The notes beneath the pieces are model-generated. The model saw only the letters and a program-made list of their open reading frames with translations. It was not told where the DNA came from and ran no database searches. A program made the position numbers and the translations under genes. Of a DNA stretch of 64,000 bases, positions 2,948-54,166 are shown piece by piece; position 1 is the stretch's first letter, and every line of letters starts with the position of its first letter. The stretch is from Malacoraja senta (lineage: Eukaryota), in assembly GCA_038087875.1 (NCBI GenBank), contig CM075994.1:4776001-4840000 (forward strand), in the 5' to 3' direction.

Positions 2948-3418
2948 TCTACTGGAGGGGCGATTCCTAGGTGTCAACAACCTGGGATGTTTGCCGCCTT
3001 TATGAGCAGGTGATTCCGATTCTTCCAGTGGGCGGTGGGGTCGGGTGTGACTTGGCTCGAAATGTGTTGAAGATTCCGTGTGTGAGACGGCTCCGAGCTG
3101 AGCCATTGTGACGTCTCACTAATAGCTGGTTGTTTTAACTTTAAAGTCTTTTGACGTTTTGTTTAGCTTTAATCAGTAAAAAATCCATAAATAAAGCGTA
3201 CAATGTCGAGTGAAGGTATTCACTGTCTAGAGGGGGAAAATGTCAATCAGAATATCTAAAAAAATTACTTCCGGTGGCGCTAATGGTGGAGTAGAGGTGT
3301 GCGCCAGCTAGTTCCACGCAAAACCCGAGAAAAAATGGGAGAAAAATAACGGACTGTCCTGCAGAGATCGCACCGGCAGACTGAGTGACGTCATCAGTCC
3401 TGCGACTCCGGAGATATA

Positions 3419-4510
3419 ATGTCGGTAAAACACTCCCCCACAAAGGGAACGGCTAAATAACTGGGAAAAGCCAAAACTCCGGTGGAAGAAGTAGGCCCGA
3501 CTGAAGCCTCGGGCTCAGTTTCAACGTCGTCCCAGGAGGATGTTTCAAAGGTCCAGAAGCCAAAGACAAAGACAAGTGAAATGGAGGAACTTCGCATCCT
3601 TATCACTTAGAAAATTGCAAGTATCACTAAGGAAACTGCAAGTATGAGAGAAGAATTGATAAACTTTAAAAAAAAAGAACATTAAAGGAATACTGTGAGG
3701 TTTCAAAAATGAAATTAAAGAAGACCTCTTAGATTTTGAAGATAAAATCACTAAGTTTGTCCGTGCAGAACTGGTTACCATGAATGAGAAAATATGTGCA
3801 AACCTCGATTTACAAATTAATGAAGTAAATGAGAAAATTAAGTTGATTGAATCCAACCTAAATGCTAAGCTGGATCCTGTCTTCAACACAATAAATCAAC
3901 AAACTGAGGCCATAACTCATTTGGAGTCAATTGCTGATACGTTCTCTCAAACTACAGAAACACTTCTTGCCGAGTACAAGCGTTTATCAGATTTACTGCT
4001 TACAGTGACTGAAAAATGTAATGACTTGGAGGGACGCCAGAGACGTCAGAACTTAAGAATTGTTGGCGTCCTAGACGGTAAAGAAGGAACTAAAGATCTC
4101 CGTCACTATACTGCAGACTTATTGAAAAAAGTCTTGAATCTAGATCAAAAGCCTTTATTAGGCCGGGCACACATGGCTCTGGGACGTCGCTCGGGCCCGA
4201 ACTCGCCCCCAAGGCAACTGATAGTGAAGGTGCAATATGAACACGTCTTGGATGATATCATGAAAAAAATATTGCTGGCACCAGAAATCTTCTTTTCGAG
4301 GGAGACACAATCAGCATTTTCAGAGACTATCCTGCCGAAGTGGTCAAAAGCACAGCGTTATTTATCGAGACAAGAGGGATTCCTAAGAAGATAGACAACT
4401 TGAGATATGGACTGCTGCACCCTGCAAGATTGAGTGTCACCTATGAACGGAAGGAACATATTTTACTGATCACAAGAAAGCATTGGCGTTCGCCCAGAAG
4501 TTCGCCCTGA
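3419..4510 (+). pseudogene. L1 ORF1p (coiled coil + RRM, Transposase_22-like), disrupted
   Basis: ORF 3780-4394 has a heptad coiled coil then DLEGRQRRQNLRIVGVLDGKEG and RAH...PPRQLIVK, typical L1 ORF1 motifs; stops and frameshifts either side. Confidence 0.88.
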
Positions 4511-5275
4511 AGAGCGTGGGCTTGAATGCTGATTGAATAACATTCATATGATAACCTCATCTTGCGGAGAATAAATGGAACTTTAAATTGCTTTACTCAA
4601 GGACCAATGAAAGCTGATAACGACAACTGAACAGACCTTCTTGATATGGACATATTATTTTAATATTTTAGTACTAATTATTACTAACAAGTACTAATTA
4701 TTAAGACTACTATTATTATTATTAGAATAATTAGTTAAAAATATGAATTGCAAACAAGCTATAACCAGGGTATTTTATTAATTAAAATTAGCTATGTTTA
4801 TTCTTTTTTTTACATCAGACTAACATTTGGCTATTACTTAGCCAAGAGAGTATTAGTCTCTCATTACATGATTACTAATCTTTTGGACCAAAATAGTTAT
4901 AACATTAATCCCGTAAATCACTCTTATTAATTTTTTTAAACAAAATTTAGCGTGGTGCTAGTAATATTTTTTTTAAGGCTACGGAAGTCCTTAGATGGCC
5001 AGCCACGTAAGTGTGGCTTACACTAACTACACTATTTGTAGATGTAGTTTCTTCTTTTTTCTTGCACTTTATTAACCTTTATTTTTTGACTTTCTTTCTT
5101 TATTTGTTATTTAATTACTATCATAAAGTTGATTTGAATGATAAGTATTATTTGTGGAGAGCAGTCCGGGAGGAGGATCTATTAAATTTAAAACTCATCT
5201 GTCCTGTGTTCGGGTGGATTGTCTGGCATACTGTGCTGAGCTATCTACTCTTTTATAGATTACCTTAACCATAAG

Positions 5276-8164
5276 ATGCAAGACGTTAATAGAAAAATTG
5301 GCGATTAAGGAATTACTTTTTGTAGCTGGAACGTTAAGGGAATTAATGAATCAGGCAAGAGAGGTAAAGTATTAGCACACTTAAATTCACTCAATGCAGA
5401 TATAATATTTCTTCAAGAAACTCATTTTAACAATGATGCACAACATAGATTGAAAGCAAAATGGATTGCTGAAACATATCATTCTTCATTCTCCCATAAG
5501 GCCAGAGGGGGCGCAATTTAAATCCGCAAAGGTATACCTTTTAAACGTATATCAACTATTGCGAACAACAATGGTAGATATATTATACTAGTGGATGAAT
5601 TATATATTAAAAAAGTGATTCTTCTCAATGTATATGGACCAAATTTTCATAATCTTTTGTTTTTTAAGAACATACTTAATACTATCCCGGAACTCACTCA
5701 ACATAACTTGATAATTGGTGGAGGCTTAAATTGTACACTAGACTCTTATCTAGCCAGATCATCAAGACAAAGAAAAGTAAAATCTAAGACAAGCGAATTA
5801 TTAAACTCATACAATAATACTACTAATATCAAAGATGTTTGGATAATTGAAAAAGCATCCGGAAGGGAATACTCATTCTACTCTCCGGTACAAAAAAATT
5901 ACTCAAGGATAGATTATTTGTAGTAGATTCTAACCATATTCCATTCACTTATAATTCGAAATATCATAATATAATAATTTCGGACCATGCTCCTTTAACA
6001 TTTATGATCAAACTAAGTGGAATGACTGAGAAGCAGACACAATGGTGACTTAATCCTCAAATTCTAAATGATAAGACATGTTATGAATACGTTATCACAC
6101 AGATACATATGTTTTTAGAGACTATTGACTGCCCTGAAATATCTGCCTCCCTTGTTTGGGAAACATTTAAACCATTTGTACGAGGCGCGTTAATCTCCAC
6201 GCAAGCCTTTCGTAATAAAGAGAATCGCGCCAAACAAAAGGTATTGGAAATGGAGATAAGGCAATTAGATATGGAAAATGCAATCGCGCCCCCTACGATA
6301 ATACATAATAAAATTGCTGCACTCAAATATAAGTTAAATCAAATATACTCAGATCAATTCATAAAACTTTATCAAAATACTAAACAGCTACATTTTGAGT
6401 TTGGTGATAAACCACAAAAAATAAACTAACGTCAACTCCGGTAACAGGAAGGGGGAAAAACAATTTATAAAATTAAATCTGCTACGGGAGAAATACTAAC
6501 ATTACCCAAGGATATTAATGATAGATTTTCTCAATACTACCAAACACTTTACTCAACCAAAACAATAGTGTGGTCTGCAGGAATGGAATCATTTTTACAG
6601 AAATGTAATCTTACAGGTTTAGATCTGAAAGAGAGAGAATTATTAGGGGCCGAAATATCAGTAAAAGATATTGAAGAATCGATTAGATCTTTAAAAAATG
6701 GAAAGGCCGCTGGCTCTGAAGGTCTAAATAGCGAATTTATTTTAAAAATCCATCATCTGAGCTCCCCACGCCTACAGACACTATATACTCATGCCTTCAT
6801 GCAACAGAAACTACCAGAAACTTTAAATGAATCAACAATAATACATACCCAAAATGTATAAGGACCCTGAAGACCCAGGTTCATATAGAGCAATTGGTCT
6901 CTTAAACACCGATCAGAAAATATTAACCAAATTTTCAGCCCATAGATTATGTTTAGTGATTCGTAAATTAATACACCCTGACCAAACAGGCTTTATTCCA
7001 TAGCGCTACACATATTATAATCTGATTATTTAATGTTATATACTCAAATAGAATAGCTAATGTAGATCTAGCAGTCATCGCGTTAGACGCTGCGAAGAAC
7101 ATTCGATCAAGTGGAATGGCCCTATTTATTTCCGGTGATGAATAATGTGAAAACCCTATAATATATATTGGTATTCGAATTCGGAAACAACTGAAAAAGA
7201 CATTAAAATTAGACAATTTATCGCTTTCTCTCCCCATTGTAAATAATCCTTCATTTAAACCCTTAGTGTTGGATAAAGGTTTTGTACAATGGAAAAATCA
7301 TGGAATTAAAAAGATGGGGCATCTTTATAGAAATGGTATTTTTCTCCCTTTTCAGGAGCTACAACAGAATTATGTATTACATTCAAATAATTTGTTTAGA
7401 TATTTACAACTTAAAGATTATGTTAAATCACATATACAAGAATACAGGACTATAGAACCAGAGATTCTAGATGAATGTTTGAATAAACACCCTAACACAG
7501 TTAAATTAATATCTTACATTTATAATAGTCTATTAGACAGTGAGATTCCGTCGACGGAATTATATAGACTAGCATGGGAAAATGAATTAGCTCAACCCAT
7601 AACAAAAGATATTTGGGATGAAAGTCTACAAAATATACATCAATGCACATTAAATGCCAGACATTCTTTAATACATTTTAAAGTACTATTTAGACTGCAT
7701 TATTCTAAAACAAATTTAAATATAATCTTTCCTAATATCTCTCCTATCTGTGAGAAATGCCAATACTCGGCGGCTAATTTAACCCATACTTTTGTAAATT
7801 GTATAAAAATTAAAAATTTCTGAGTGGATATTTTTAAAATAATCTCCGTAGTTGTTAATACTCAACTGGATCCCAATCCTAAATGTATAATATTGGGCAT
7901 ATCAGAACAATACCTAAAACTTACAACAAACCAAAGACATTTCCTTGATTACAGTATAATAATTGGGAAAAAAATAATATTAAAATTTTGGAAAAATCCA
8001 GCAACCCCCACAAATAAGATATGGATTATGGAGAGGTCGGAGACCTTATAGTTGGAAAAAATAGATATGTCTTAATTGACAAACCAGAATTGTTTAGTAA
8101 AATATGGTCTCCATTTATAGATTATTTGAAGGGGTGGATTGGGCCGGCACGTAGGCCAGACTGA
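5276..8164 (+). pseudogene. L1 ORF2p (APE endonuclease, partial RT, C-terminal CCHC), disrupted
   Basis: EN motifs SWNVKG, LQETH, NVYGPN, SRIDY, SDH; RT N-terminal motifs YRAIGLLNTDQKILTK, HPDQTGFI, VEWPYL; C-terminal CEKC...HTFVNC. No QG/PLSP or YADD motifs seen; many stops. Confidence 0.9.
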
Positions 8165-10344
8165 AACCGGAACCCAGGACAAATTTGAATATTTATGTTT
8201 TCTGCCCTACGGACCTCGCTCCTAAGTTGCATTATTGATAGCTTATCTTATTTTTCTAATTTCTTCTCTTTAATTCTTTATTTTTCTGATCTATAAACAT
8301 AAATAAATAATTAGAGGATTGTTAATATGTAACCAATAAAGGAGGACTCCAGCTACTTTTGTAACTGTGTCCCAGGATCCCTGGATATTTAAAATGTAAT
8401 CGTTAAACAAGTTTTCTATTGGTTTGGACTATGATATGCAGATGCCTCAAATAAAAATTTAAATAAAAACAAATCTAAAACATTTTATCGTTACCGCGTA
8501 CTGTTTTTCCGAAGACGAAAATACACACACGTACACGCAAAGATCTGCACATGAACAAGATTAGAGTTTTATTTACTACTAGAGAAACTGCACTTGAATT
8601 TGGCGGCCTTGCACACTGCTTGAAGTGGTAGGAAACTACCCAAGTATGGTGGCCTTGCACTCTGCTTGAAGTGGTATGAATCTGCACTTGAGTTTGGTGG
8701 ACATTGACCCTGCTTGAACTGGTATGAAACTGCACTCGAGTTTGGTGGACTTGCACCCTGCTTGAAGTTGTATGAAACTGCACTTGAATTTGGTGGCATT
8801 GCCCTCTGCATGAAGTGGCAAGAAACAGCACTTGAATTTGGTGACCATTCACCCTGCATGAAGTGGTAGGAAACTGCACTTGAATTTGGTGGCCTTGCAC
8901 CCAGATAGAATTTGTATGAAACTGCACTTGAGTTTGGTGCACTTTGACCCCGCTTGAAGTGGTATGAAACTGCACACGAGTTTGGTGGAATTGCACCCAA
9001 TTTGAAGTGGTATGAAACTGCACTTGAATTTGGTGGCCTTGCAACCTGCTTGAAGCGGTATAAAAATGCATATGAATTTGGTGACGTTGCACCCTGCGTG
9101 AAGTGGCTCGAAACTGCACTTGAATTTTCTGGCCTTGCACCCCGATTGAAGTGGCATGAAACTGCACATGTTTGGTGGCCTTGCACCCTGCTTAAAGTGG
9201 TAGGAAAATGCACTTGAGTATGGTTGCCCTGGGCCCTGCTTGAAGATGTAGGAGACTGCACTAGAATTTGGTGGCCTTGCACACTGCTTAAAGTGGTAGG
9301 ACACTGCACTTGAATATGGTGGCCTTGCACCCTGCTTGAAGTGGTATGAAACTGCACTCGAGTTTGGTGGACCTGCTCCCTCCTTGAAGTGGTATGAAAC
9401 TGCATTTGAATTTGGTGGCCTTGCACCTTGAGTGAAGTGGCATGACACTGCACTTGAGTTTGGTGGCCAAGCACCCTGCTTGAAGTGGCATAAAACTGCA
9501 CTTGAATTTGCTGGCCTTGCACTCTGATTCAAGTGGCATGAAACTGCACTTGAGGTTGGTGAACTTGCGCCCTGCATGAAGTGGCATGAAACTGCACTTG
9601 AGTTTGTTGGCCTTGCACCCTGCATGAAGTGGCAAGAAACTGCACTTGAATTTGGTGGCCCTGCACCCTGCTTGAAGTGGTAGGAATCTGCACTTGATTA
9701 TGGTGGTCTTGCACCCTGCTTGAAGTAGTATGATACTGCACTTGAATTTGCTGGCCTTGCACTCTGATTTAAGTGGCATGAAACTGAAGTTGAGTTTGGT
9801 GGACTTGCACCCTGCATGAAGTGGCATGAAACTGCACTTGAGTTTGGGGGCCTTGCACCCTGCATGAAGTGGTAGGAAACTGCACTTGAGTGTGGTGGCC
9901 CTGCACCCTGCTTGTAGTGGTATGAAACTGCACTTGCATTTGGTGGCCTTGCACCCTGCTTGAAGTGGCATGAAACTGCACTTGAATTTGCTGGCCTTGC
10001 ACTCTGACTGAAGTGGCATGAAACTGCACTTGATGTTGGTGGACTTGCACTCTGCATGAAGTGGCATGAAACAGAACTTGAGTTTGGTGGCCTTGCACCC
10101 TGCATGAAGTGGTAGGAAACTGTACTTGAGTGTGGTGGCCCTGCACCCTGCTTGAAGCGGTAGGAAACTGCAATTGAGTTTGGTGGACTTGGGCTCTGCT
10201 TGAAGTGATATGAAACTGCACTTGAGTGTGGTGGATTTGCACCCTCCTTGAAGTGGCTTGAAACTGCACTTGAATTTTATGGCCATGCACCCTGCTTGAA
10301 GTGGCATGAATCTGCAGTTGAATTGAGTGCCCTTGCATGCTGCT

Positions 10345-10537
10345 TTAAACAACGTTTGAATTGGTTTGGACTTTGATATGCAGTTGCCTCTAATAAAAAT
10401 GTAATAATAAAAAAAATCAAAAGTAAATCTAAAAAATGTTATTGTTACCGCGTACTGTTTTTGCGAAGACGAAAATACACAAACATATACGCAAAGATAT
10501 GCACACGAACACGATCAGAGTATTATTATCTACTAGA
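10345..10537. repeat. Array spacer copy 1 (L1 3' tail + inverted Helitron 5' end)
   Basis: Homologous to 8401-8583 (ttaaacaa...ttggtttggac..gatatgcag..cctc..aataaaa...gttaccgcgtactgtt...tactaga). Confidence 0.92.
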
Positions 10538-13500
10538 GAAAATGCACGTGAATTTGGTGGCCTTGCACCCCGCTTGAATTGGTAGGAAACTGCACGAATA
10601 TGGTGGCCTTGCACCCTGCTTCAAGTGGTATGAATCTGCACTTGAGTTTGGTGGACTTTGACCCTGCTTGAAATGGTATGAAACTGCACTCGTGTTTGGT
10701 GGACTTGCACCCTGCTTGAAGTGGTATGAAACTGCACTTGAGTTTGGTGGACATGCACCCTCCTTGAAGTGGCATGAAACTGCACTTGGAATTTATGGCC
10801 ATGCACCCTGCTTGAAGTGGCATGAAACTACAGTTGAATTTAGTGCCCTTGCACCCTGCTTGAAGTGGTATGAAACTGAATTTGAGTTTGGTGGACTTTC
10901 AACCAGCTTGAAATGGTGTGAAACTGCTCCTAAATTTGGAGGCTTTTCACCCTGCTTGATGTGGCATGAAACTGCACTTGAATATGGTGGCCTTGCCCCG
11001 TGCATGAAGTGCCATGAAACTGCACTTGAATTTGGTGACCTTGCACTCTGCAGGAAGTGGCATGAAACTGCATTTGATTGTGGTGGCCTGGCACCCTGCT
11101 TGAAGTGGTAGGAAACTGCACTTGAATTTGGTGGCCTTGCACCCTGATAGAATTTGTATGAAACTGCACTTGAGTTTGGTGCACTTTGACCCCGCTTGAA
11201 GTGGTATGAAACTGCACTCGAGTTTGGTGGACTTGCACCCAAATTGAAGTGGCATGAAGCTGCACTTGAATTTGTTGGCCTTGCAGCCTGCTTGAAGCGG
11301 TATAAAAATGCATATGAATTTGGTGACCTTGCACCCTGCTTGAAGTGGCTCGAAACTGCACTTGAATTTTCTGGCCTTGCACCCTGATTGAAGTGGCATG
11401 AAACTGCACATGTTTGGTGGCCTTGCACCCTGCTTGAAGTGGTAGGAAAATGCACTTGAGTATGGTTGCCCTGGGCCCTGCTTGAAGATGTAGGAGACTG
11501 CACTTGAATTTGGTGGCCTTGCACACTGCTTAAAGTGGTAGGACACTGCACTTGAATATGGTGGCCTTGCAACCTGCTTGAAGTGGTATGAAACTGCACT
11601 CGAGTTTGGTGGACCTGCTCCCTCCTTGAAGTGGTATGAAACTGCATTTGAATTTGGTGGCCTTGCACCTTGAGTGAAGTGGCATGACACTGCACTTGAG
11701 TTTGGTTGCCTTGCACCCTGCTTGAAGTGGTAGGAAATTGCACTTGCGATTGGTGGCCCTGCACCCTGCTTGAAGTGGTAGGAAACTGCACTTGAATTTG
11801 GTGGCCTTGCACCCTGCTTGAAGTGATAGGAAACTGCACTTGGATATGGTGGTCTTGCACCCTGCTTGAAGTGGTATGAAACAGCACTTGAGTTTGGTGG
11901 ACTTTGACCCGGCTTCATGTGATATAATAATGCACTCGAGTTTGGTTGACATGCACCCTGCTTGAACTGGTATGAAACTGCACTTGAATTTGGTGGACTT
12001 GCACCCTCGTTGAAGTGGCTTGAAACTGCACTTGAATTTTATGGCCATGCACCCTGCTTGAAGTGGCATGAAACTGCAGTTGAATTTAGTGCCCTTGCAC
12101 CCTGCTTGAAGTGGTATGAAACTGAACTTGAGTTTGGTGGACTTTCAACCAGCTTGAAATGGTGTGAAACTGCTCCTAAATTTGGAGGCCTTTCACCCTG
12201 CTTGATGTGGCATGAAACTGCACTTGAATATGGTGGCCTTGCCCCGTGCATGAAGTGGCATGACACTGCACTTGAATTTGGTGACCTTGCACTCTGCAGG
12301 AAGTGGCATGGAACTGCATTTGAATTTGGTGGCCTGGCACCCTGCTTGAAGTGGTAGGAAACTGCACTTGAATTTGGTGGCCTTGCACCCAGATAGAATT
12401 TGTATGAAACTGCACTTGAGTTTGGTGCACTTTGACCCCGCTTGAAGTGGTATGAAACTGCACACGAGTTTGGTGGACTTGCACCGAATTTGAAGTGGTA
12501 TGAAACTGCACTTGAATTTGGTGGCCTTGCAACCTGCTTGAAGCGGTATAAAAATGCATATGAATTTGGTGACGTTGCACCCTGCTTGAAGTGGCTCGAA
12601 ACTGCACTTGAATTTTCTGGCCTTGCACCCTGATTGAAGTGGCATGAAACTGCACATGTTTGGTGGCCTTGCACCCTGCTTAAAGTGGTAGGAAAATGCA
12701 CTTGAGTATGGTTGCCCTGGGCCCTGCTTGAAGATGTAGGAGACTGCACTAGAATTTGGTGGCCTTGCACACTGCTTAAAGTGGTAGGACACTGCACTTG
12801 AATATGGTGGCCTTGCACCCTGCTTGAAGTGGTATGAAACTGCACTCGGGTTTGGTGGACCTGCTCCCTCCTTGAAGTGGTATGAAACTGCATTTGAATT
12901 TGGTGGCCTTGCACCTTGAGTGAAGTGGCATGACACTGCACTTGAGTTTGGTGGCCAAGCACCCTGCTTGAAGTGGCATAAAACTGCACTTGAATTTGTT
13001 GGCCTTGCACTCTGATTCAAGTGGCATGAGACTGCACTTGAGGTTGGTGGACTTGCACCCTGCATGAAGTGGCATGAAACTGCACTTGAGTTTGTTGGCC
13101 TTGCACCCTGCTTGAAGTGGCAAGAAACTGCACTTGAATTTGGTGGCCCTGCACCCTGCTTGAAGTGGTAGGAATCTGCACTTGAATATGGTGGTCTTGC
13201 ACCCTGCTTGAAGTAGTATGATACTGCACTTGAATTTGCTGGCCTTGCACTCTGATTTAAGTGGCGTGAAACTGAAGTTGAGTTTGGTGGACTTGCACCC
13301 TGCATGAAGTGGCATGAAACTGCACTTGAGTTAGGTGGCCTTGCACCCTGCATGAAGTGGTAGGAAACTGCACTTGAGTGTGGTGGCCCTGCACCCTGCT
13401 TGAAGTGGAAGGAAACTGCACTTGAATTTGGTGGCCTTGCACCCTGCTTGAAGTGGTAGGAAACTGCACTTGAATATGGTGAACTTGCAGCCTGCTTGAA

Positions 13501-13685
13501 GTGGTATGAAACTGCACTTGAGTTTGGTGGACTTGGGCTCTGCTTGAAGTGATATGAAACTGCACTTGAGTTTGGTGGACTTGCACCCTCCTTGAAGTGG
13601 CTTGAAACCGCACATGAATTTTATGGCCATGCACCATGCTTGAAGTGGCATGAAACTGCATTTGAATTTAGTGCCCTGCATCCTG

Positions 13686-13821
13686 CGTTAAACAACATTT
13701 GTATTGGTTTGGACTATGATATGCAGTTACCGCATACTGATTTTGCGAAGACGAAAATACACACACATATACGCAAATATATGCACACGAACAAGATCAG
13801 AGTATTATTATCTGCTATAGA
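13686..13821. repeat. Array spacer copy 2 (60-bp internal deletion)
   Basis: Same as 20781-20976 but joins atgcag directly to ttaccgc. Confidence 0.92.
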
Positions 13822-16800
13822 AACTGCACTTGAATTTGGTGGCCTTGCACCATGCTTGAAGTGGTAGGAAACTGCACGAACTTGGGGCCTTGCACCCTGC
13901 TTGATGTGGCATGAATCTGCTCCTGAATTTGGTGGCATTGCCCCCTGCATGAAGTGGCAAGTAACTGCACTCGAGTTTGGTGACCATTCACCCTGCTTGA
14001 AGTGGCATGAAACTGCACTTGAATTTTATGGCCATGCACCCTGCTTGAAGTGGCATGAAACTGCGGTTGAATTCAGTGCCCTTGCACCCTGCTTGAAGCG
14101 GCTTGAAACTGCACTTGTATTTGGTACACTTGCACCCTGCTTGAAGTGGCATGAAACTGCCCTTGAATTTGGTGGCCTTGCACCCTGCTTGAAGTGGTAG
14201 GAAATTGCACCTGAATATAGTGGACTTGCACCCTGCTTGAAGTGATAGGAGACTGCATTTGTATTTGGTGTCCTTGCACCCTGCATGAAGTGGCACGAAA
14301 CTGCACTTGAGTTTGATGGCCTTGCACCCTGCTTGAAGTTGTAGGAAACTGCACTTCAGTGTGGAGGTCCTGCACCCTACTTGAAGTGGTAGGAAACTGC
14401 ATTTGAATTTGTTGGCCCTGTACCCTGATTGATGTGGTATGAAGCTGCACTCGAGTTTGGTGGCCTTGCACCCTGCTTGAAGTGGCATGAAACTGCACTT
14501 GAATTTTCTGGCCATGCACCCTGATTGGAGTGGCATGAAACTGCACGAGTTTGGTGGCCTTGCACCCTGCTTGAAGTGGCATGAAACTGCACTTGAGATT
14601 GGTGGCCTTGCACCCTGCTTGAAGTGGCATGAAACAGCACTTGAATTATCTGGCCATGCACCCTGATTGACGTGGCATGAAACTGCACGAGTTTGGTGGC
14701 CTTGCACCCTGCTTGGTGGCATGAAACTGAACGAGTTTGGTGGCCTTGCACCCTTCTTGAAGTGGTAGAAAATTGCATTTGAGTGTGGTGGCCCTGGACC
14801 CTGCTTGAAGTAGTAGGAGACTGCAGTTGAATTTGGTGGCCATGCACTTTGCTTGAAGTGGTAGGAAACTGCACTTGAATATGGTGCACTTGCACCCTGC
14901 TTGACGGGGGATGAAACTGCACATGAGTTTGGTGGATTTGGACTCAGCTTGAAGTGGTATGAAACAGAACTTGAGTTTGGTGGTCTGGACCCTGTTTGAA
15001 GTGGTATGAAACTGCACTCGAGTTTGGTGGACTTGCACCCTGCTTGAAGTGGTATGAAACTGCACTTGAGTATCGTGGCTTTGCCCCCTGCATGAAGTGG
15101 CATGACACTGCACTTGAATTTGGTGACCTTTCTCCCTGCTTGAAGTGGTCTGAAACTGCACCTGAATCTGGTGGCCTTGCACCCTGCTTGAAGTGGTATG
15201 AAGCTGCACTTGAGTTTGGTGGCCTTGCACCCTGCTTGAAGTGGCATGAAACTGCACTTGAGTTTGGTGGCCTTGCACCCTGCTTGAAGTGGTAGGAAGC
15301 TACACTTGAGAATGGTGGCCCTGCACCCTGCTTGAAGTGGTAGGAAACTGCACTTGAATTTGGTTGCCTTGCACCCTGCTTGAAGTGGTAGGAAACTGCA
15401 CTTGAATATGGTGGTCTTGCACCCTGCTTGAAGTGGTAGGAAACTGCACTTGAATATGGTGGTCTTGCACCCTGCTTGAAGTGGTATGAAACTGAACTTG
15501 AGTTTGGTGGACTTTCAACCAGCTTGAAATGGTGTGAAACTGCTCCTAAATTTGGAGGCCTTTCACCCTGCTTGATGTGGCATGAAACTGCACTTGAATA
15601 TGGTGGCCTTGCCCCGTGCATGAAGTGCCATGAAACTGCACTTGAATTTGGTGACCTTGTACTCTGCAGGAAGTGGCATGAAACTGCATTTGAATTCGGT
15701 GGCCTGGCACCCTGCTTGAAGTGGTAGGAAACTGCACTTGAATTTGGTGGCCTTGCACCCTGATAGAATTTGTATGAAACTGCACTTGAGTTTGGTGCAC
15801 TTTGACCCCGCTTGAAGTGGTATGAAACTGCACTCGAGTTTGGTGGACTTGCACCCAATTTGAAGTGGTATGAAACTGCACTTGAATTTGGTGGCCTTGC
15901 AACCTGCTTGAAGCGGTATAAAAATGCATATGAATTTGGTGACCTTGCACCCTGCTTGAAGTGGCTCGAAACTGCACTTGAATTTTCTGGCCTTGCACCC
16001 TGATTGAAGTGGCATGAAACTGCACATGTTTAGTGGCCTTGCACCCTGCTTAAAGTGGTAGGAAAATGCACTTGAGTATGGTTGCCCTGGGCCCTACTTG
16101 AAGATGTAGGAGACTGCACTTGAATTTGGTGGCCTTGCACACTGCTTAAAGTGGTAGGACACTGCACTTGAATATGGTGGCTTTGCACCCTGCTTGAAGT
16201 GGTATGAAACTGCACTCGAGTTTGGTGGACCTGCTCCCTCCTTGAAGTGGTATGAAATTGCATTTGAATTTGGTGGCCTTGCACCTTGCGTGAAGTGGCA
16301 TGACACTGCACTTGAGTTTGGTGGCCTAGCACCCTGCTTGAAGTGGCATAAAACTGCACTTGAATTTGCTGGCCTTGCACTCTGATTCAAGTGGCATGAA
16401 ACTGCACTTGAGGTTGGTGAACTTGCGCCCTGCACGAAGTGGCATGAAACTGCACTTGAGTTTGTTGGCCTTGCACCCTGCATGAAGTGGCAAGAAACTG
16501 CACTTGAATTTGGTGGCCCTGCACCCTGCTTGAAGTGGTAGGAATCTGCACTTGATTATGGTGGTCTTGCACCCTGCTTGAAGTAGTATGATACTGCACT
16601 TGAATTTGCTGGCCTTGCACTCTGATTTAAGTGGCGTGAAACTGAAGTTGAGTTTGGTGGACTTGCACCCTGCATGAAGTGGCATGAAACTGCACTTGAG
16701 TTTGGGGGCCTTGCACCCTGCATGAAGTGGTAGGAAACTGCACTTGAGTGTGGTGGCCCTGCACCCTGCTTGTAGTGGTATGAAACTGCACTTGCATTTG

Positions 16801-17202
16801 GTGTCCTTGCACCCTGCTTGAAGTGGCATGAAACTGCACTTGAATTTGCTGGCCTTGCACTCTGACTGAAGTGGCATGAAACTGCACTTGTGGTTGGTGG
16901 ACTTGCACTCTGCATGAAGTGGCATGAAACAGAACTTGTGTTTGGTGGCCTTGCACCCTGCATGAAGTGGTAGGAAACTGTACTTGAGTGTGGTGGCCCT
17001 GCACCCTGCTTGAAGTGGTAGGAAACTGCAATTGAGTTTGGTGGACTTGGGCTCTGCTTGAAGTGATATGAAACTGCACTTGAGTGTGGTGGATTTGCAC
17101 CCTCCTTGAAGTGGCTTGAAACTGCACTTGAATTTTATGGCAATGCACACTGCTTGAAGTGGCATGAATCTGCAGTTGAATTGAGTGCCCTTGCATGCTG
17201 CT

Positions 17203-17395
17203 TTAAACAACGTTTGAATTGGTTTGGACATTGATATGCAGTTGCCTCTAATAAAAATGTAATAATAAAAAAAATCTAAAGTAAATCTAAAAAATGTTAT
17301 TGTTACCGCGCACTGTTTTTGCGAAGACGAAAATACACAAACATATACGCAAAGATATGCACACGAACACGATCAGAGTATTATTATCTACTAGA
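17203..17395. repeat. Array spacer copy 3
   Basis: Nearly identical to copy 1, offset 6858 bp. Confidence 0.92.
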
Positions 17396-20300
17396 GAAAA
17401 TTCACGTGAATTTGGTGGCCTTGCACCCCGCTTGAATTGGTAGGAAACTGCACGAATATGGTGGCCTTGCACCCTGCTTCAAGTGGTATGAATCTGCACT
17501 TGAGTTTGGTGGACTTTGACCCTGCTTGAAATGGTATGAAACTGCACTCGTGTTTGGTGGACTTGCACCCTGCTTGAAGTGGTATGAAACTGCACTTGAG
17601 TTTGGTGGACATGCACCCTCCTTGATGTGGCATGAAACTGCACTTGGATTATATGGCCATGCACCCTGCTTGAAGTGGCATGAAACTGCAGTTGAATTTA
17701 GTGCCCTTGCACCCTGCTTGAAGTGGTATGATACTGAACTTGAGTTTGGTGGACTTTCAACCAGCTTGAAATGGTGTGAAACAGCTCCTAAATTTGGAGG
17801 CTTTTCACCCTGCTTGATGTGGCATGAAACTGCACTTGAATATGGTGGCCTTGCCCCGTGCATGAAGTGCCATGAAACTGCACTTGAATTTGGTGACCTT
17901 GCACTCTGCAGGAAGTGGCATGAAACTGCATTTGATTGTGGTGGCCTGGCACCCTGCTTGAAGTGTTAGGAAACTGCACTCGAATTTGGTGGCCTTGCAC
18001 CCTGATAGAATTTGTATGAAACTGCACTTGAGTTTGGTGCACTTTGACCCCGCTTGAAGTGGTATGAAACTGCACTCGAGTTTGGTGGACTTGCACCCAA
18101 ATTGAAGTGGTATGAAGCTGCACTTGAATTTGTTGGCCTTGCAACCTGCTTGAAGCGGTATAAAAATGCATTTAAATTTGGTGACCTTGCACCCTGCTTG
18201 AAGTGGCTCGAAACTGCACTTGAATTTTCTGGCCTTGCACCCTGATTGAAGTGGCATGAAACTGCACATGTTTGGTGGCCTTGCACCCTGCTTGAAGTGG
18301 TAGGAAAATGCACTTGAGTATGGTTGCCCTGGGCCCTGCTTGAAGATGTAGGAAACTGCACTTGAATTTGCTGGCCTTGCACACTGCTTAAAGTGGTAGG
18401 ACACTGCACTTGAATATGGTGGCCTTGCACCCTGCTTGAAGTGGTATGAAACTGCACTCGAGTTTGGTGGACCTGCTCCCTCCTTGAAGTGGTATGAAAC
18501 TGCATTTGAATTTGGTGGCCTTGCACCTTGAGTGAAGTGGCATGACACTGCACTTGAGTTTGGTGGCCTTGCACCCTGCTTGAAGTGGCATGAAACTGCA
18601 CGAGTTTGGTTGCCTTGCACCCTGCTTGAAGTGGTAGGAAATTGCACTTGCGATTGGTGGCCCTGCACCCTGCTTGAAGTGGTAGGAAACTGCACTTGAA
18701 TTTGGTGCCCTTGCACCCTGCTTGAAGTGATAGGAAACTGCACTTGGATATGGTGGTCTTGCACCCTGCTTGAAGTGGTATGAAACAGCACTTGAGTTTG
18801 GTGGACTTTGACCCGGCTTCAAGTGATATAATAATGCACTCGAGTTTGGTTGACATGCACCCTGCTTGAACTGGTATGAAACTGCACTTGAATTTGGTGG
18901 ACTTGCACCCTCGTTGAAGTGGCTTGAAACTGCACTTGAATTTTATGGCCATGCACCCTGCTTGAAGTGGCATGAAACTGCAGTTGAATTTAGTGCCCTT
19001 GCACCCTGCTTGAAGTGGTATGAAACTGAACTTGAGTTTGGTGGACTTTCAACCAGCTTGAAATGGTGTGAAACTGCTCCTAAATTTGGAGGCCTTTCAC
19101 CCTGCTTGATGTGGCATGAAACTGCACTTGAATATGGTGGCCTTGCCCCGTGCATGAAGTGCCATGAAACTGCACTTGAATTTGGTGACCTTGCACTCTG
19201 CAGGAAGTGGCATGAAACTGCATTTGAATTTGGTGGCCTGGCACCCTGCTTGAAGTGGTAGGAAACTGCACTTGAATTTGGTGGCCTTGCACCCAGATAG
19301 AATTTGTATGAAACTGCACTTGAGTTTGGTGCACTTTGACCCCGCTTGAAGTGGTATGAAACTGCACACGAGTTTGGTGGACTTGCACCCAATTTGAAGT
19401 GGTATGAAACTGCACTTGAATTTGGTGGCCTTGCAACCTGCTGGAAGCGGTATAAAATGCATATGAATTTGGTGACGTTGCACCCTGCTTGAAGTGGCTC
19501 GAAACTGCACTTGAATTTTCTGGCCTTGCACCCTGATTGAAGTGGCATGAAACTGCACATGTTTGGTGGCCTTGCACCCTGCATAAAGTGGTAGGAAAAT
19601 GCACTTGAGTATGGTTGCCCTGGGCCCTGCTTGAAGATGTAGGAGACTGCACTTGAATTTGGTGGCCTTGCACACTGCTTAAAGTGGTAGGACACTGCAC
19701 TTGAATATGGTGGCCTTGCACCCTGCTTGAAGTGGTATGAAACTGCACTCGAGTTTGGTGGACCTGCTCCCTCCTTGTAGTGGTATGAAACTGCATTTGA
19801 ATTTGGTGGCCTTGCACCTTGAGTGAAGTGGCATGACACTGCACTTGAGTTTGGTGGCCAAGCACCCTGCTTGAAGTGGCATAAAACTGCACTTGAATTT
19901 GCTGGCCTTGCACTCTGATTCAAGTGGCATGAAACTGCACTTGAGGTTGGTGGACTTGCACCCTGCATGAAGTGGCATGAAACTGCACTTGAGTTTGTTG
20001 GCCTTGCACCCTGCATGAAGTGGCAAGAAACTGCACTTGAATTTGGTGGCCCTGCACCCTGCTTGAAGTGGTAGGAATCTGCACTTGAATATGGTGGTCT
20101 TGTACCCTGCTTGAAGTAGCATGATACTGCACTTGAATTTGCTGGCCTTGCACTCTGATTTAAGTGGCGTGAAACTGAAGTTGAGGTTGGTGGACTTGCA
20201 CCCTGCATGAAGTGGCATGAAACTGCACTTGAGTTTGTTGGCCTTGCACCCTGCATGAAGTGGCAAGAAACTGCACTTGAATTTGGTGGCCCTGCACCCT

Positions 20301-20780
20301 GCTTGAAGTGGTAGGAATCTGCACTTGAATATGGTGGTCTTGCACCCTGCTTGAAGTAGCATGATACTGCACTTGAATTTGCTGGCCTTGCACTCTGATT
20401 TAAGTGGCGTGAAACTGAAGTTGAGTTTGGTGGACTTGCACCCTGCATGAAGTGGTAGGAAACTGCACTTGAGTGTGGTGGCCCTGCACCCTGCTTGAAG
20501 TGGAAGGAAACTGCACTTGAATTTGGTGGCCTTGCACCCTGCTTGAAGTGGTAGGAAACTGCACTTGAATATGGTGAACTTGCAGACTGCTTGAAGTGGT
20601 ATGAAACTGCACTTGAGTTTGGTGGACTTGGGCTCTGCTTGAAGTGATATGAAACTGCACTTGAGTTTGGTGGACTTGCACCCTCCTTGAAGTGGCTTGA
20701 AACCGCACATGAATTTTATGGCCATGCACCATGCTTGAAGTGGCATGAAACTGCATTTGAATTTAGTGCCCTGCATCCTT

Positions 20781-20976
20781 CGTTAAACAACATTTGTATT
20801 GGTTTGGACTATGATATGCAGATGCCTCTAATAAAAATTCAATAATTAAAAAAAATAATAATAATCTAAAACATGTTATCGTTACCGCATACTGATTTTG
20901 CGAAGACGAAAATACACACACATATACGCAAAGATATGCAAGCGAACAAGATCAGAGTATTATTATCTGCTATAGA
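20781..20976. repeat. Array spacer copy 4
   Basis: Shares diagnostic variants with copy 2 (catttgtattgg, cgcatactgatt, tctgctataga). Confidence 0.92.
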
Positions 20977-23900
20977 AACTGCACTTGAATTTGGTGGCCT
21001 TGCACCATGCTTGAAGTGGTAGGAAACTGCACGAACATGGTGGCCTTGCACCCTGCTTGATGTGGCATGAATCTGCTCCTGAATTTGGTGGCATTGCCCC
21101 CTGCATGAAGTGGCAAGTAACTGCACTCGAGTTTGGTGACCATTCACCCTGCTTGAAGTGGCATGAAACTGCACTTGAATTTTATGGCCATGCACCCTGC
21201 TTGAAGTGGCATGAAACTGCGGTTGAATTCAGTGCCCTTGCACCCTGCTTGAAGCGGCTTGAAACTGCCCTTGAATTTGGTGGCCTTGCACCCTGCTTGA
21301 AGTGGTAGGAAATTGCACCTGAATTTAGTGGACTTGCACCCTGCTTGAAGTGATAGGGGACTGCATTTGTATTTGGTGTCCTTGCACCCTGCATGAAGTG
21401 GCACGAAACTGCACTTGAGTTTGATGGCCTTGCACCCTGCTTGAAGTTGTAGGAAACTGCACTTCAGTGTGGAGGTCCTGCACCCTACTTGAAGTGGTAG
21501 GAAACTGCATTTGAATTTGTTGGCCCTGTACCCTGATTGAAGTGGTATGAAACTGCACTTGAGTTTGGTGGACATTGACCCCTCTTGAAGTGGTATGAAA
21601 CAGCACTCGAGTTTGGTGGACTTGCACCCTGATTGAAGTGGCATGAAACTGCACTTGAGTTTGGTGGCCTTGCACCGTGTTTGAAGTGGTAGGAAACTGC
21701 AGTTGAGTGTGGTGGCCCTGGACCCTGCTTGAAGTGGTATGAAACTGCATTTCAATTTGGAGGCCTTGCACCCTGCTTGAAGTGGCATGAAACTGCACTT
21801 GAATATGGTGGCCTTGCACCCTGCACGAAGTGGCATGAAACTGCACTTGAATTTGGTGGGCTGGCACCTTGCTTGATGTGGTAGGAAACTGCACTTGAAT
21901 TTGGTGGCCTTGCACCCTGCTAGAAGTTGTATGAAACTGCACTGAGTTTGGTGGACATTGACCCCGCTTGAAGTGGTATGAAACTGCACTCGAGTTTGGT
22001 GGCCTTGCACCCTGCTTGAAGTGGCATGAAACTGCACTTGAATTTTCTGGCCATGCACCCTGATTGGAGTGGCATGAAACTGCACGAGTTTGGTGGCCTT
22101 GCACCCTGCTTGAAGTGGCATGAAACTGCACTTGAGATTGGTGGCCTTGCACCCTGCTTGAAGTGGCATGAAACTGCACTTGAATTATCTGGCCATGCAC
22201 CCTGATTGACGTGGCATGAAACTGCACGAGTTTGGTGGCCTTGCACCCTGCTTGGTGGCATGAAACTGCACGAGTTTGGTGGCCTTGCACCCTGCTTGAA
22301 GTGGTAGAAAATTGCATTTGAGTGTGGTGGCCCTGGACCCTGCTTGAAGTAGTAGGAGACTGCAGTTGAATTTGGTGGCCATGCACCTTGCCTGAAGTGG
22401 TAGGAAACTGCACTTGAATATGGTGGACTTGCACCCTGCTTGACGTGGGATGAAACTGCGCATGAGTTTGGTGGATTTGGACTCAGCTTGAAGTGGTATG
22501 AAACAGAACTTGAGTTTGGTGGTCTTGGACCCTGCTTGAAGTGGTATGAAACTGCACTCGAGTTTGGTGGACTTGCACTCTGCTTGAAGTGGTATGAAAC
22601 TGCACTTGAGTATGGTGGCCTTGCCCCCTGCATGAAGTGGCATGAAACTGCACTTGAATTTGGTGACCTTTCTCCCTGCTTGAAGTGGTCTGAAACTGCA
22701 CCTGAATCTGGTGGCCTTGCACCCTGCTTGAAGTGGTATGAAGCTGCACTTGAGTTTGGTGGCCTTGCACCCTGCTTGAAGTGGCATGAAACTGCACTTG
22801 AGTTTGGTGGCCTTGCACCCTGCTTGAAGTGGTAGGAAGCTGCACTTGAGAATGGTGGCCCTGCACCCTGCTTGAAGTGGTAGGAAACTGCACTTGAATT
22901 TGGTTGCCTTGCACCCTGCTTGATGTGGTAGGAAACTGCACTTGAATATGGTGGTCTTGCACCCTGCTTGAAGTGGTATGAAACTGTACTTGAGTTTGGT
23001 GGACTTCGCCCTGCTTCAAGTGGTATTAAACTGCACTCGAGTTTGGTGGACATGCACCCTGCTTGAACTGGAATGAAACTGCACTTGAATTTGGTGGCCT
23101 TGCACCCTGAATGAAGTGGCAAGAAACTGCACTTGAATTTGTTGTCCTTTCACCCTGGAAGAAGTGGTATGAAACTGCACTTGAATTTGGTGGCCTTGCA
23201 CCCGGCTTGGAGTGGTATGAAACTGCACTTGAATTTGTTGTCCTTGCACCCTGCTTGAAATGGTATGAAACTGCATTTGAATTTGGTGGCCTTGCACCCG
23301 GCTTGAGTGGTATGAAACTGCACTTGAATTTGCTTGTCTTGCACCCTGATTGAAGTGGAATGAAACTGCACTTGTGTATGGTGCCCTTGCACCCTGCTTG
23401 AAGTGGCATGAAAAGGCACTTGAGTTTGGTGGCCTTGCACCCTGCTTGAAGTGGTAGGAAACTGTACTTGAGTATGGAGGCCCTAGTCCTGCTTGAAATG
23501 GTATGAAACTGCACTTGAATTTGGTGGCCTTGCACCCGGCTTGAGTGGTATGAAACTGCACTTGAATTTGCTTGTCTTGCACCCTGATTGAAGTGGAATG
23601 AAACTGCACTTGTGTATGGTGCCCTTGCACCCTGCTTGAAGTGGCATGAAAAGGCACTTGAGTTTGGTGGCCTTGCACCCTGCTTGAAGTGGTAGGAAAC
23701 TGTACTTGAGTATGGAGGCCCTAGTCCTGCTTGAAGTGGTAGGAGACTGCACTTGAATTTGGTGGCCTTGCACCCTGCTTGGTGGTAGGGAACTGCACTT
23801 GAATTTGCTGGCCTTGCACTCTGATTGAAGTGGCATAAAACTGCACTTCAGTTTGGTGGCCTTGCACCCTGCTTGAAGTGGCAGGAAACTGCACTTGAGT

Positions 23901-24975
23901 TTGGAGGCCTTGCACCCTGCTTGACGTGACATGAAACTACACTTGAGTTTGGTGGCCTTGCACCCTGCTTGAAGTGACATGAAACTACACTTGAATACGG
24001 TGGCCTTGCACCCTGCTTGAAGTGGTATGAATGTGCAGTTGAGTTTGGTAGAATTGGACTCTGCGTGAAGTGGTATGAAACTGCACTTGAGTTTGGTCGA
24101 CTTTCCCCCTGCTTGAAGTGGTCTGAAACTGCACCTGAATCTGGTGGCCTTGCACCCTGCTTGAAGTGGTATGAAGCTGCACTTGAGTTTGGTGGCCTTG
24201 CGCCCTGCTTGAAGTGGCATGAAACTGCAGTTGAGTTTGGTGGCCTCGCATCCTGCTTGAAGTGGTAGGATGCTGCACTTGAGAATGGTGGCCCTGCACC
24301 CTGCTTGATGTGGTAGGAAACTGCACTTGAATTTGGTGGCCTTGCACCCTGCTTGAAGTGGTAGGAAACTGCACTTGAATATGGTGGTCTTGCACCCTGC
24401 TTGAAGTGGTATGAAACTGTACTTGAGTTTGGTGGACTTCGCCCTGCTTCAAGTGGTATTAAACTGCACTCGAGTATGATGGACATGCACCCTGCTTGAA
24501 CTGGAATGAAACTGCACTTGAATTTGGTGGCGTTGCCCCCTGAATGAAGTGGCAAGAAACTGCACTAGAATTTGTTGTCCTTTCACCCTGCAAGAAGTGG
24601 TAAGAAACTGCATTTGATTTTGGTGGCCTTGCCTCCTGCATGATGTGGTACGAAATTGCACTTGAATGTGTTGGCCTTGCACCCTGCTTGCTGTGCTATG
24701 TAACTGCACTTGAATTTGGTGGCCCAGCACCATGCTTGAAGTGGCATGAAAATGCACTTGCATTTGGTGGCCTTGCACCCTGCTTGAAGTGGCAGGAAAC
24801 TGTGCTTAAGTTTTGTGGACTGTCACCCTGCATGAAGTGGTAGGAAACTGCCCTAGCATTTGGTGGCCTTGCACCCTGCTTGACGTTGCAGGAAACTGCA
24901 CTTAAATTTCGTGGCCTTGCCCCCTGCTTGAAATGGTAGGAAACTGCATTTGAATTTGGTGGCCTTGCACCCTGC

Positions 24976-25276
24976 CATAAATGGGATTACATGGAATAGC
25001 CATGAGTCAACCGCCGGCCCACCAGCCGTGAGCGAGCTGCCAGCACATTAGGCTTCAGTGACTGAGCTGCCATCCCGAAAATCCAGTTGTCCCACAATGT
25101 CCATACTAGCCCTCTGGAAACCAGTCCCTTCAGCCCACAAGACCCATACTAGCGATCCAGAAAGCAACCGCCCTCCCCACTGGCTACCAATTTGGAATTC
25201 GTGAGAGGTGGAATATTGCGTTGGGGACCAGCCCTCCCGTGTGAACATGGGACCCAACGGGTCCCACTTAGTCTAG
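24976..25276 (+). mobile_element. 3' terminal segment of Helitron-like element (B) directly downstream of the 48-bp array
   Basis: Perfect hairpin tgggaccc-aac-gggtccca (25248-25266), short spacer, CTAG (25273-25276) followed by T; same architecture as 57646-57674. Confidence 0.82.
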
Positions 25277-25601: not shown

Positions 25602-28570
25602 TTAGTGTCCCGTACCTGCCTTCTCTCCATACCCCCTGATCCCCTTAGCCACAAGGGCCACATCTACCTCCCTCTTAAATATAGCCAATGAACTGGCCTC
25701 AACTACCCTCTGTGGCAGAGAGTTCCAGAGATTCACCACTCTCTGTGTGAAAACGTTTTTCCTCATCTCGGTCCTAAAGGATTTCCCCCTTATCATTAAG
25801 CTGTGACCCCTTGTCCTGGACTTCCCAACATCGGGAACAATCTTCCTGCATCTAGCCTGTCCAACCCCATAAGAATTGTGTACGTTTCTATAAGATCCCC
25901 TCTCAATCTGCTAAATTCTAGCGAGTATAAGCCAAGTCTATCCAGTCTTTCTTCATATGAAAGTCCTGACATCCCAGGAATCAGTCTGGTGAACCTTCTC
26001 TGCACTCCCTCTATGGCTATAATGTCCTTCCTCAGATTTGGAGACCAAAACTGTACGCAATACGCCAGGTGTGGTCTCACCAAGACCCTGTACAACTGCA
26101 GTAGAACCTCCCTGCTCCTATACTCAAATCCTCTTGCTATGAAGGCCAACATACCATTCGCTTTCTTCACTGCTTGCTGCACCTGCATGCCTACTTTCAA
26201 TGACTGGTGTACCATGACACCCAGGTCTCGCTGCATCTCCCTATTTCCTAATCGGCCACCATTTAGATAATAGTCTGCCTTCCCGTTTTTGCCACCAAAG
26301 TGGATAACCTCACATTTATCCACATTATACTGCATCTGCCAAACATTTGCCCACTCACCCAGCCTATCCAAGTCACCTTGCAGTCTCCCAGCATCGTCCT
26401 CACAGCTAACACTGCCCCCCCCCCCCAGCTTAGTGTCATCCGCAAACTTGGAGATGTTGCTTTCAATTCCCACGTCCAGATCATTAATATAAATTGTAAA
26501 TAGCTGGTGTCCCAGCACCGAGCCTTGCGGTACCCCACTAGTCACTGCCTGCCATTGTGAAAAGGACCCGTTTACTCCTACTCTTTGCTTCCTGTTTGCC
26601 AGCCAGTTCTCTATCCACATCAATACTGAACCCCCAATACCGTGTGATTTAAGTTTGTATCCTAATCTCTTATGTGGTACCTTGTCGAAAGCCTTCTGAA
26701 AGTCCAGATACAACACATCCACTGGTTCTCCCCTATCCACTCTACTAGTTACATCCTCGAAAAATTCTATGAGATTCGTCAGACACGATTTACCTTTCGT
26801 GAATCCATGCTGACTTTGTCCAATGATTTCACCACTTTCCAAATGTGCTGCTATCCCATCTTTAATAACTGACTCTAGCAGTTTCCCCACTACCGATGTT
26901 AGACTAACTGGTCTGTAATGCCCCGTTTTCTCTCTCCCTCCCTTCTTAAAAAGTGGGGTTACGTTTGCTACCCTCCAATCCTCAGGAACTACTCCAGAAT
27001 CTAAGGAGTTTTGAAAAATTATCACTAATGCATCCACTATTTCTGGAGCTACTTCCTTAAGTACTCTGGGATGCAGCCTTTCTGGCCCTGGTGATTTATC
27101 GGCATTTAATCCATTCAATTCACCCAACACCACTTCCCGACTAACCTGGATTTCACTCAGTTCCTCCATCTCCTTTGACCCGCGGCCCCCTGCTATTTCC
27201 GGCAGATTATTAATGTCTTCCTCAGTGAAGACGGAACCAAAGTAGTTATTCAATTGGTCCGTCATATCCTTGTTCCCTATGATCAATTCACCTGTTTCTG
27301 ACTGCAAGGGACCTACATTTGTTTTAACTAATCTCTTTCTCTTCACATATCTATAAAAACTTTTGCAGTCAGTTTTTATGTTCCCTGCCAGTTTCCTTTC
27401 ATAATCTATTTTCCCTTTCCTAATTAAGCCATTTGTCCTCCTCTGTTAGTCTCTGAATTTCTCCCAGTCCTCTGGTATGCTGCTTTTTCTGGCTAATATG
27501 TACGCATCATCTTTTGCTTTGATACTATCCCTGATTTCCCTTGTTACCCACGGATGCACTACCTTCCCTGATTTATTCTTTTGCCAAACTGGGATGAACA
27601 ATTTTTGTAGTTCATCCATGCAGTCATTAAATGCCTTCCATTGCATATCCACCGTCAACCCTTTTAGAACTAATTGCCAGTCAATCTTGGCCAATTCACG
27701 TCTGATACCCTCAAAGCTACCTTTCTTTAAGTTCAGAACCGTTGTTTCTGAATTAACAATGTCACTCTCCATCCTAGTGAAGAACTCAACCATATTATGG
27801 TCACTCTTGCCCAAGGGGGCACGCACAACAAGACTGCTAACTAACCCTTCCTCATTCCTCAATACCCAGTCTAGAATAGGCTGCTCTCTCGTTGGTTCCT
27901 CTACATGTTGGTTTAGATAACTATCCCGCATACATTCCAAGAAATCCTCTTCCTCAGCACCCCAGCCAATTTGATTCACCCAATCTATATGTAGATTGAA
28001 GTCACCCATTATAACTGTTTTGCCTTTGTTGCACGCATTTATAATTTCCTGTTTGATGCCATCCCCAACTTCACTACTACTGCTAGGTGGCCTGTACACA
28101 ACACCCACCAGCGTTTTCTGCCCCTTAGTGTTTCGCAGCTCTACCCATACCGATTCCACATCCTCCAAGCTATTGTCCATCCTTTCCACTGCGTTAATCT
28201 CCTCTCTAACCAGCAACGCCACCCCAACTCCTTTTCCTTTCTCTCTATCCCTCCTGAATATTGAATATCCCTGGATGTTCAGCTCACAGCCTTGGTCACC
28301 CTGGAGCCATGTCTCCGTGATCCCAACTATATCATAATCATTAATTGTTATCTGCACGTTCAACTCATCCACCTTATTACGAATGCTCCTTGCATTGAGA
28401 CACAAAGCCTTCAGGCTTGTCTTTACAACGCTCTTACCCCTTATACAATTATGTTGAGAAGTGGCTCTTTTTGATTTTTGCCCTGGATTTGTCTGCCTGC
28501 CACTTTTACTTTTCACCTTGCTACCTATTGCTTCCGCCCGCACTTTACACCCCTCTATTTCTCTGCTCAC
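25602..28570 (-). pseudogene. CR1 ORF2 (APE endonuclease + reverse transcriptase)
   Basis: CLNARSIRNK, GITETWL, GVVYRPP, MGDFN, SDHN; RT YRPVSLTSVVGK, QHGF, YLDFQKAFDKVPH, GVPQGSVLG, SKFADDTKL. ORFs 27446-28570 and 25796-27346 share a frame, split by one TAA; one frameshift near 25820. Confidence 0.95.
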
Positions 28571-54100: not shown

Positions 54101-54166
54101 CGTCTGTACGTCTGTACGTCTGTACGTCTGTACGTCTGTACGTCTGTACGTCTGTACGTCCGTACG
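54101..54166. repeat. (CTGTACGT)n microsatellite, ~7-8 units
   Basis: Direct. Confidence 0.95.

Follow-up and report, generated by a model that had tools for sequence, protein, structure and literature searches.

Does a 16-kb array of short tandem repeats that runs into a Helitron-like terminus record the birth of a satellite inside a transposon, or has it grown in some other way? The question is raised by positions 8584-25276 of the window, the stretch of 64,000 nucleotides from Malacoraja senta (contig CM075994.1, positions 4,776,001 to 4,840,000) analyzed here. All coordinates without a contig name are those of the window, and a slash in a motif marks the boundary of an element.

Five sub-arrays, each preceded by a copy of the left flank

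Tandem Repeats Finder reported a single 48-bp tandem repeat that spans 8584-24975 (score 17578). Segmentation of this array gave 329 monomers, exactly 48 bp long in 284 cases, in good agreement with the approximately 325 copies of the original prediction. The one continuous run that this prediction had implied was not recovered, as segmentation and comparison revealed interruptions at 10345, 13686, 17203, and 20780, all of which are 115-190-bp copies of positions 8400-8583. The array consists of five sub-arrays with 37, 66, 71, 71, and 84 monomers, each preceded by such a flank copy (termed head), and the 301-bp tail follows only the fifth and last of these head-plus-array units. Viewed as a satellite, the array comprises 16.4 kb of head-to-tail repeats with a higher-order structure, in which duplications of 5, 26/27, 30, and about 137 monomers are nested. 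The features of the locus are as follows.

1938-3262, minus strand: 3' part of an older Helitron-like element (element B) that is split by a LINE; degenerate hairpin and CTAT end near 1938; putative middle part
3263-8478, plus strand: degenerate, near full-length LINE (L1/Tx1-like) with a poly(A) end, inserted in element B
8400-8583: head H1, the original left flank, composed of the LINE end (~80 bp) and the start of element B (~105 bp; minus strand, 8479-8583)
8584-10344, plus strand: sub-array 1, 37 monomers
10345-10535: head H2, flank copy, 15% from H1 and 2.1% from H4
10536-13685, plus strand: sub-array 2, 66 monomers, with an internal duplication of 26 monomers (2.8%)
13686-13819: head H3, flank copy with a ~60-bp deletion, 2.3% from H5
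13820-17202, plus strand: sub-array 3, 71 monomers
17203-17393: head H4, flank copy
17394-20779, plus strand: sub-array 4, 71 monomers
20780-20974: head H5, flank copy
20975-24975, plus strand: sub-array 5, 84 monomers, the last of which is the usual last-monomer variant of the family
24976-25276, plus strand: 3' tail of a non-autonomous Helitron family, with a hairpin at 25248-25266 and CTAG at 25273-25276, followed by T

The whole array-plus-tail block sits between A8583 and T25277. As predicted, the tail ends in a perfect hairpin (8-bp stem, 3-nt loop), which lies 6 nt upstream of CTAG/T at 25276. Taken alone, this hairpin is modest, with a z of -2.15 and equally good folds in 7 of 200 shuffles, and it carries weight because it is conserved across the family described below. 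A coding function of the array was considered and rejected: stop-free frames of up to 590 codons on the minus strand and up to 149 codons on the plus strand were attributed to the stop-poor 48-bp unit and to chance.

The monomer and the tail belong to an abundant Helitron family

The segment of about 300 bp behind the array had been called unique, but the 301-bp tail matched 2,936 first-look candidates in the genome, and the 40 that were scored had 89-91% identity, the window itself excepted. An abundant non-autonomous Helitron family (A/TC...CTAG/T), with about 3,000 loci or more, has this tail as its 3' end. At 29 other tail-selected loci that were fetched, 4-31 monomers were found within 1.5 kb upstream in 28 cases; the CTAG end was present in 26, and a T directly followed the end in all 29. 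In the other direction, a 35-mer taken from the monomer has 4,602 exact matches in the assembly (2.4 per Mb). The first 60 of 62 clusters among the first 100 matches listed served as a sample, which is limited to one contig (C1) and biased to near-consensus, longer arrays. In this sample, the tail was adjacent at 51 of the 60 loci and the left block at 54, and the number of monomers per locus ranged from 2.1 to 49.6 (median 8.4). The expected association of the monomer with this terminus at other loci was thus found from both sides (28/29 tail-selected and 51/60 monomer-selected loci), and the expected range from a few to hundreds of monomers per locus corresponds to about 2 to 329 across the sampled loci.

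A full family copy contains, in this order, A/TCTATAT, a block A1, a minisatellite of about 30 bp, a related block A2, the 48-bp repeat, and the tail. At the fetched loci, the 5' ends are mostly A/TCTATAT, and most of them are preceded by A. The 5' TC end, the 3' CTAG with its hairpin, and the insertion between A and T are characteristic of Helitron1-type elements, and neither target-site duplications nor terminal inverted repeats were apparent by eye in the printed family ends. The family does not group with Helentrons, DINEs, or HINEs, as its ends are TC and CTAG at A/T, and Pfam detected no endonuclease domain in the one RepHel that was scanned. Among the family copies, L022 and L214 carry an internal inversion, and L020 is a tail without monomers.

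A plausible RepHel partner

Helitron_like_N had 112 matches in the genome, with open frames of up to 1,766 aa. The one ORF scanned with Pfam (1,745 aa) contains Helitron_like_N and PIF1 domains and gave no endonuclease match. A sister hairpin-CTAG motif was present 0.7-1.8 kb past the RepHel ORF in seven of eight fetched regions. The RepHel-coding elements contain neither the 48-bp monomer nor the body of the family tail. Judged from terminal motifs only, they may be partners of the family, which would then be a canonical non-autonomous Helitron with a plausible RepHel partner.

The RepHel Helitrons L110-L125 (for example on G000:C3619, C4719, and C6177) are 93-99% identical over long stretches and occur, frequently on small contigs, where Helitron ends are stacked in clusters. 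RepHel-coding Helitrons were possibly active in recent times. The window was also considered as a source of RepHel sequence and rejected, as the only tblastn match, at 25956-26015, covered 20 aa of the C-terminal end of the ORF and not the RepHel core. A second complete-looking non-autonomous Helitron, with an A/TC start and a hairpin plus CTAG/T end, lies at 54067-57674 (plus strand); its 5' sequence matches the sequence upstream of RepHel-coding elements.

The heads combine a LINE end with the start of a second Helitron

The LINE in the left flank, which we take to be of the L1/Tx1 type as judged by eye from motifs in its translation, is flanked by a TSD-like repeat of about 13 bp with two mismatches. 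Its dispersed genome copies are about 91% identical and share its poly(A) end point; a Pfam scan of one 187-aa LINE piece gave no match. The first ~80 bp of the head are the poly(A) end of this dispersed LINE, and 35 of 41 head matches contained the LINE half only. Beside such LINE-half matches elsewhere, monomers were found at none of the 25 loci fetched. The last ~105 bp of the head are the beginning (5' end) of the Helitron-like family B, read on the minus strand, and B-family loci resume beyond the LINE at 3262->3096, with the end of B near 1938. Both halves are joined only in the five heads of the window among the 41 scored matches. The repeat unit thus starts outside the Helitron, at a LINE/B junction that was seen at the window locus only.

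It was in principle possible that the head was the family's own 5' end, but this was rejected, since the head consists of a LINE 3' end and a 5' piece of B, and the 5' half of the family is different. The family's 5' blocks were searched for in the window outside the array and in the adjoining 10 kb to its left and right, and no match was obtained. For this search range, we rejected on the same grounds a displacement of the 5' half by the insertion of B and the LINE. The placement of the array inside a Helitron-like element, as originally proposed, therefore holds in one respect, as the monomer does represent a Helitron central repeat, and fails in another, as the 5' half of this copy is gone and the repeat unit contains outside DNA.

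When the block was taken out in silico, the flanks joined at A/T, and B gained a regular A/TC start. We infer from this sequence arrangement that the block was inserted at the edge of element B.

Helitron 3' ends often abut Helitron 5'-like sequences, where they replace the first five bases. This was seen at 12 of 15 B-like loci (L065-L079), and the same abutment occurs at 8 of 70 family 3' ends (L002-L030, L128-L187). The pattern suggests that Helitrons may prefer to insert into each other's 5' ends, and the junction itself resembles a new left end.

Probable growth of the array by successive local duplications

Adjacent monomers differ by 18%, yet for 302 of the 329, another monomer exists with at most two differences. 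The divergence within seven duplicated block pairs of 0.5-2.9 kb is 1.3-3.1%, and the largest set lies at an offset of about 6.86 kb. The divergence of the heads is stepwise: H2 and H4 differ by 2.1% and H3 and H5 by 2.3%, the two types differ from each other by 8-13%, and all differ from H1 by 13-17%. All four internal heads begin at one LINE position, after homologous monomers. With this common start and these homologous monomers, the block is accounted for by a single duplication that formed the junction and by the unequal exchanges that came after it. Similar, recent block duplications were found in other long arrays, at an offset of 39 monomers with 0.3% divergence and at an offset of 29 monomers with 0.6%, and one other long array has co-duplicated about 780 bp of foreign DNA. 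A point against local growth is that the internal heads differ from the LINE majority by 12-17%, compared to 7.6% for H1, although these values derive from 66 bp and small numbers.

The observations point to growth by successive unequal exchange after insertion, rather than to rolling-circle growth. In a rolling-circle concatemer, according to the model of Xiong et al. for plant Helitrons, the transposase would have started at a cryptic site near 8400, flank and array would have been copied several times, and termination would have occurred once. Such an event would produce the architecture of multiple 5' ends and a single 3' end that is described in PMC12628747, an A/TC is indeed present at 8399-8401, and open-frame RepHel ORFs exist in the genome. 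However, the unit starts in a LINE 3' UTR, which is unlike the left terminus of the family, and the T of the said TC is missing in three of the four internal heads. Moreover, a single concatemer would consist of units of equal age, whereas the heads are 2-17% apart and the sub-arrays are of mixed age, and none of the scored matches elsewhere showed the unit. We therefore regard a concatemer as very unlikely.

An assembly effect was also considered, in which the last doubling of about 6.9 kb (units 4-5) would be the other haplotype set in tandem by the assembler, and the true array would have only about 9-10 kb; the rest of our preferred explanation, given below, would be unaffected. The doubled blocks are only 1.3-1.7% apart, and the public run X1 gave one contig over the H2/H4-type junction and left H5 uncovered, both of which would fit. 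On the other hand, H3 and H5 are separated by an indel of about 60 bp, several indels of whole monomer blocks distinguish the two halves, and nested duplications of other sizes and ages are present. The hole at H5 is uninformative, as contigs drop variants and X1 may stem from another individual. Taken together, we consider such an artifact improbable. The X1 contig of 331 nt bridges the monomer-head-monomer transition at H2 (10292-10578) with one difference; H5 is unbridged, the run may come from the very sample that was assembled, and contigs do not count copies. As the H2 junction is present in X1, a wholly artifactual array is unlikely. What X1 supports is the type of junction; the length of 16 kb is that of the assembly alone.

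Our preferred explanation, which we hold to be probable, is that the block consists of the central repeat and the 3' end of a Helitron copy without its 5' half, and that it reached 16 kb by post-insertion local duplications that included the flanking LINE and the second Helitron. We would reconstruct the sequence of events, and what led to the 5' loss, as follows. A family copy, oriented opposite to B, would first have inserted at A/T on the 5' edge of this element. The 5' half of the family copy would then have been deleted, perhaps aided, as a speculation, by the two similar Helitron 5' ends that stood head to head. A duplication that began at 8400 in the LINE 3' UTR and reached into the array may next have generated the monomer-to-LINE junction, an event that would be about as old as the LINE insertion. 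Later unequal exchanges would have copied this junction together with blocks of 5 to about 140 monomers, and the last event would have been the doubling of about 6.9 kb, which is about 1.5% diverged. By these steps, the array was likely enlarged about 40-fold over the usual internal repeat of the family.

In Helraiser, the left end is essential for transposition and the right end is dispensable, according to PMC4778049. The window copy would not move as a unit because its 5' half is lost and Helraiser needs the left end. The intact terminator noted in the original prediction therefore does not make the copy mobile, as it is the end that Helraiser can dispense with, and the needed 5' end is missing. 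Most likely, the block is inert, immobile, and without function.

A satellite in the making?

Array searches were carried out with overlapping result sets, the best 9-13 of more than 5,000 candidates being scored in each, and the array lengths are samples in this sense. The array of the window, with its 329 monomers, was the longest among those scored. Long arrays (66-197 monomers) are rare in the family, whose median is about 8. Complete family copies with 66 and 68 monomers were found, and 92 monomers are present on C2. At G000:C4314:104487-120576, about 197 monomers occur in four pieces. At G000:C1:157716135-157724105, at least 166 uninterrupted monomers stand behind an intact 5' end and run into an assembly gap, which makes this array the best candidate for a larger one and indicates that growth inside the element does occur in the family. 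In the C4314 array, a foreign segment of about 780 bp is duplicated together with monomers (92.7%), and a 4.7-kb insert has 203 bp repeated exactly at both ends.

In the original view, a satellite is being born in a still-delimited Helitron and is on its way to a large (hetero)chromatin satellite. In line with this view, the monomer is a Helitron central repeat in arrays of about 2 to 329 units, and the C1 array, with its intact 5' end and 166 or more monomers, enters an assembly gap. A precedent exists in DINE-TR1 of Drosophila (dmgsat-7), whose central tandem repeats have taken such a path and expanded to arrays of up to about 82.6 kb, as reported in PMC9957191. However, the copy in the window lacks its 5' half, and DNA from outside the element is part of its repeat unit. 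Nor are the monomers homogenized: their pairwise identity in the window array is 81%, and they are more diverged there than in the sampled short copies. Furthermore, the exact 35-mer has a density of 2.4 per Mb genome-wide, compared to 3.8 per Mb on C1 (first 100 matches, 26.5 Mb), and no scored array was longer than that of the window. As the genome-wide density is below that of dispersed loci on C1, this count gives no hint that the assembly contains a large homogeneous block, with the limit that the exact 35-mer misses diverged or unassembled blocks and that the window's own array contains 5 exact matches. A long free-standing array was found at none of the 60 monomer-selected loci on C1, and neither the 35-mer count nor the array searches revealed a large satellite block of the 48-bp monomer in the assembly. 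Since a mature satellite built from this monomer was not encountered, the intermediate stage of satellite birth is a projection, and we rate this course of events as highly improbable.

A broader reading would see a graded series of Helitron central repeats, with about 2-329 monomers at about 3,000 loci and a RepHel that is maybe active. Some of its arrays would by now be satellites hidden in gaps, and the window locus would be a composite LINE-Helitron unit at five copies. We consider this reading unlikely as a whole.

Comparison to known systems

Helitron-derived and composite satellites have been reviewed (PMC9659126, PMC12692304, PMC12628747), and minisatellite-bearing Helitrons are known from Xenopus, zebrafish, and bats (PMC12001565). 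The claim of an undescribed system cannot be upheld, as the type is already described, including the vertebrate minisatellite-bearing Helitrons of PMC12001565. The array in the window represents a known process at its extreme, namely the local duplication of a Helitron central repeat, here in a truncated copy. In the partial collection of article texts that was covered, we found no description of the family itself, nor of any vertebrate Helitron whose array reaches hundreds of monomers; a killifish preprint likewise contained nothing of relevance.

Like DINE-TR1, the family consists of non-autonomous rolling-circle elements in which conserved blocks enclose a central tandem repeat, and some of the arrays have hundreds of copies. 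DINE-TR1, however, is described as a Helentron derivative with repeats of about 150 bp that make up 1.6-2.5% of the genome, whereas the skate family has Helitron1-type ends (TC...hairpin-CTAG, AT target) and a 48-bp monomer; its largest array found, that of the window, has 16 kb and a unit that includes the flank. Cg_HINE of the Pacific oyster (PMC7492417) resembles the family in its thousands of dispersed non-autonomous elements with short satellite-like arrays and a steep fall-off in array length, but it is reported to have Helentron-type ends, monomers of 140-180 bp, and a longest array of 29 in its assembly, compared to 66-329 here. Heli2Xen, Helitron-N2_XT, Helitron-N1_DR, and the bat Helitrons are likewise vertebrate elements that consist largely of minisatellite repeats and spread these repeats; as presented in PMC12001565, they differ in having 2-7 repeats and in being mostly Helitron2-derived (166-bp unit).

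With its LINE 3' end, B 5' end, and central repeats, the composite unit of the window resembles the composite monomers from "TE graveyards" or shuffled Helitron loci treated in PMC12628747, from which it differs by its length of 2-4 kb and its five copies at one locus. The arrangement of several heads with a single 3' end is shared with tandem arrays of truncated plant Helitrons (Xiong et al. 2016, as summarized in PMC12628747). In the plant arrays as summarized there, the heads are the element's own 5' end, whereas those of the window are foreign flank of mixed ages.

In the standard two-stage model of satellite origin, which is laid out in PMC5932611, small tandem seeds arise first and unequal exchange follows. 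The growth proposed here for the window array conforms to this model. The family offers thousands of natural replicates of one minisatellite, seeded by a transposon and with sizes over two orders of magnitude, and these many replicates make it a usable vertebrate test bed for this model. The largest expansion found did not need the transposon ends and took in foreign flank.

Three further repeat features of the window may be mentioned. A foldback or MITE-like element of about 1.9 kb lies at 41299-43211, with inverted arms of about 620 bp that are 77% alike and with 32-bp subterminal tandem repeats. A 70-bp tandem repeat with about three copies is present at 30940-31180, and a perfect hairpin with an 18-bp stem and a 7-nt loop is found at 44904-44946 in otherwise unannotated DNA.
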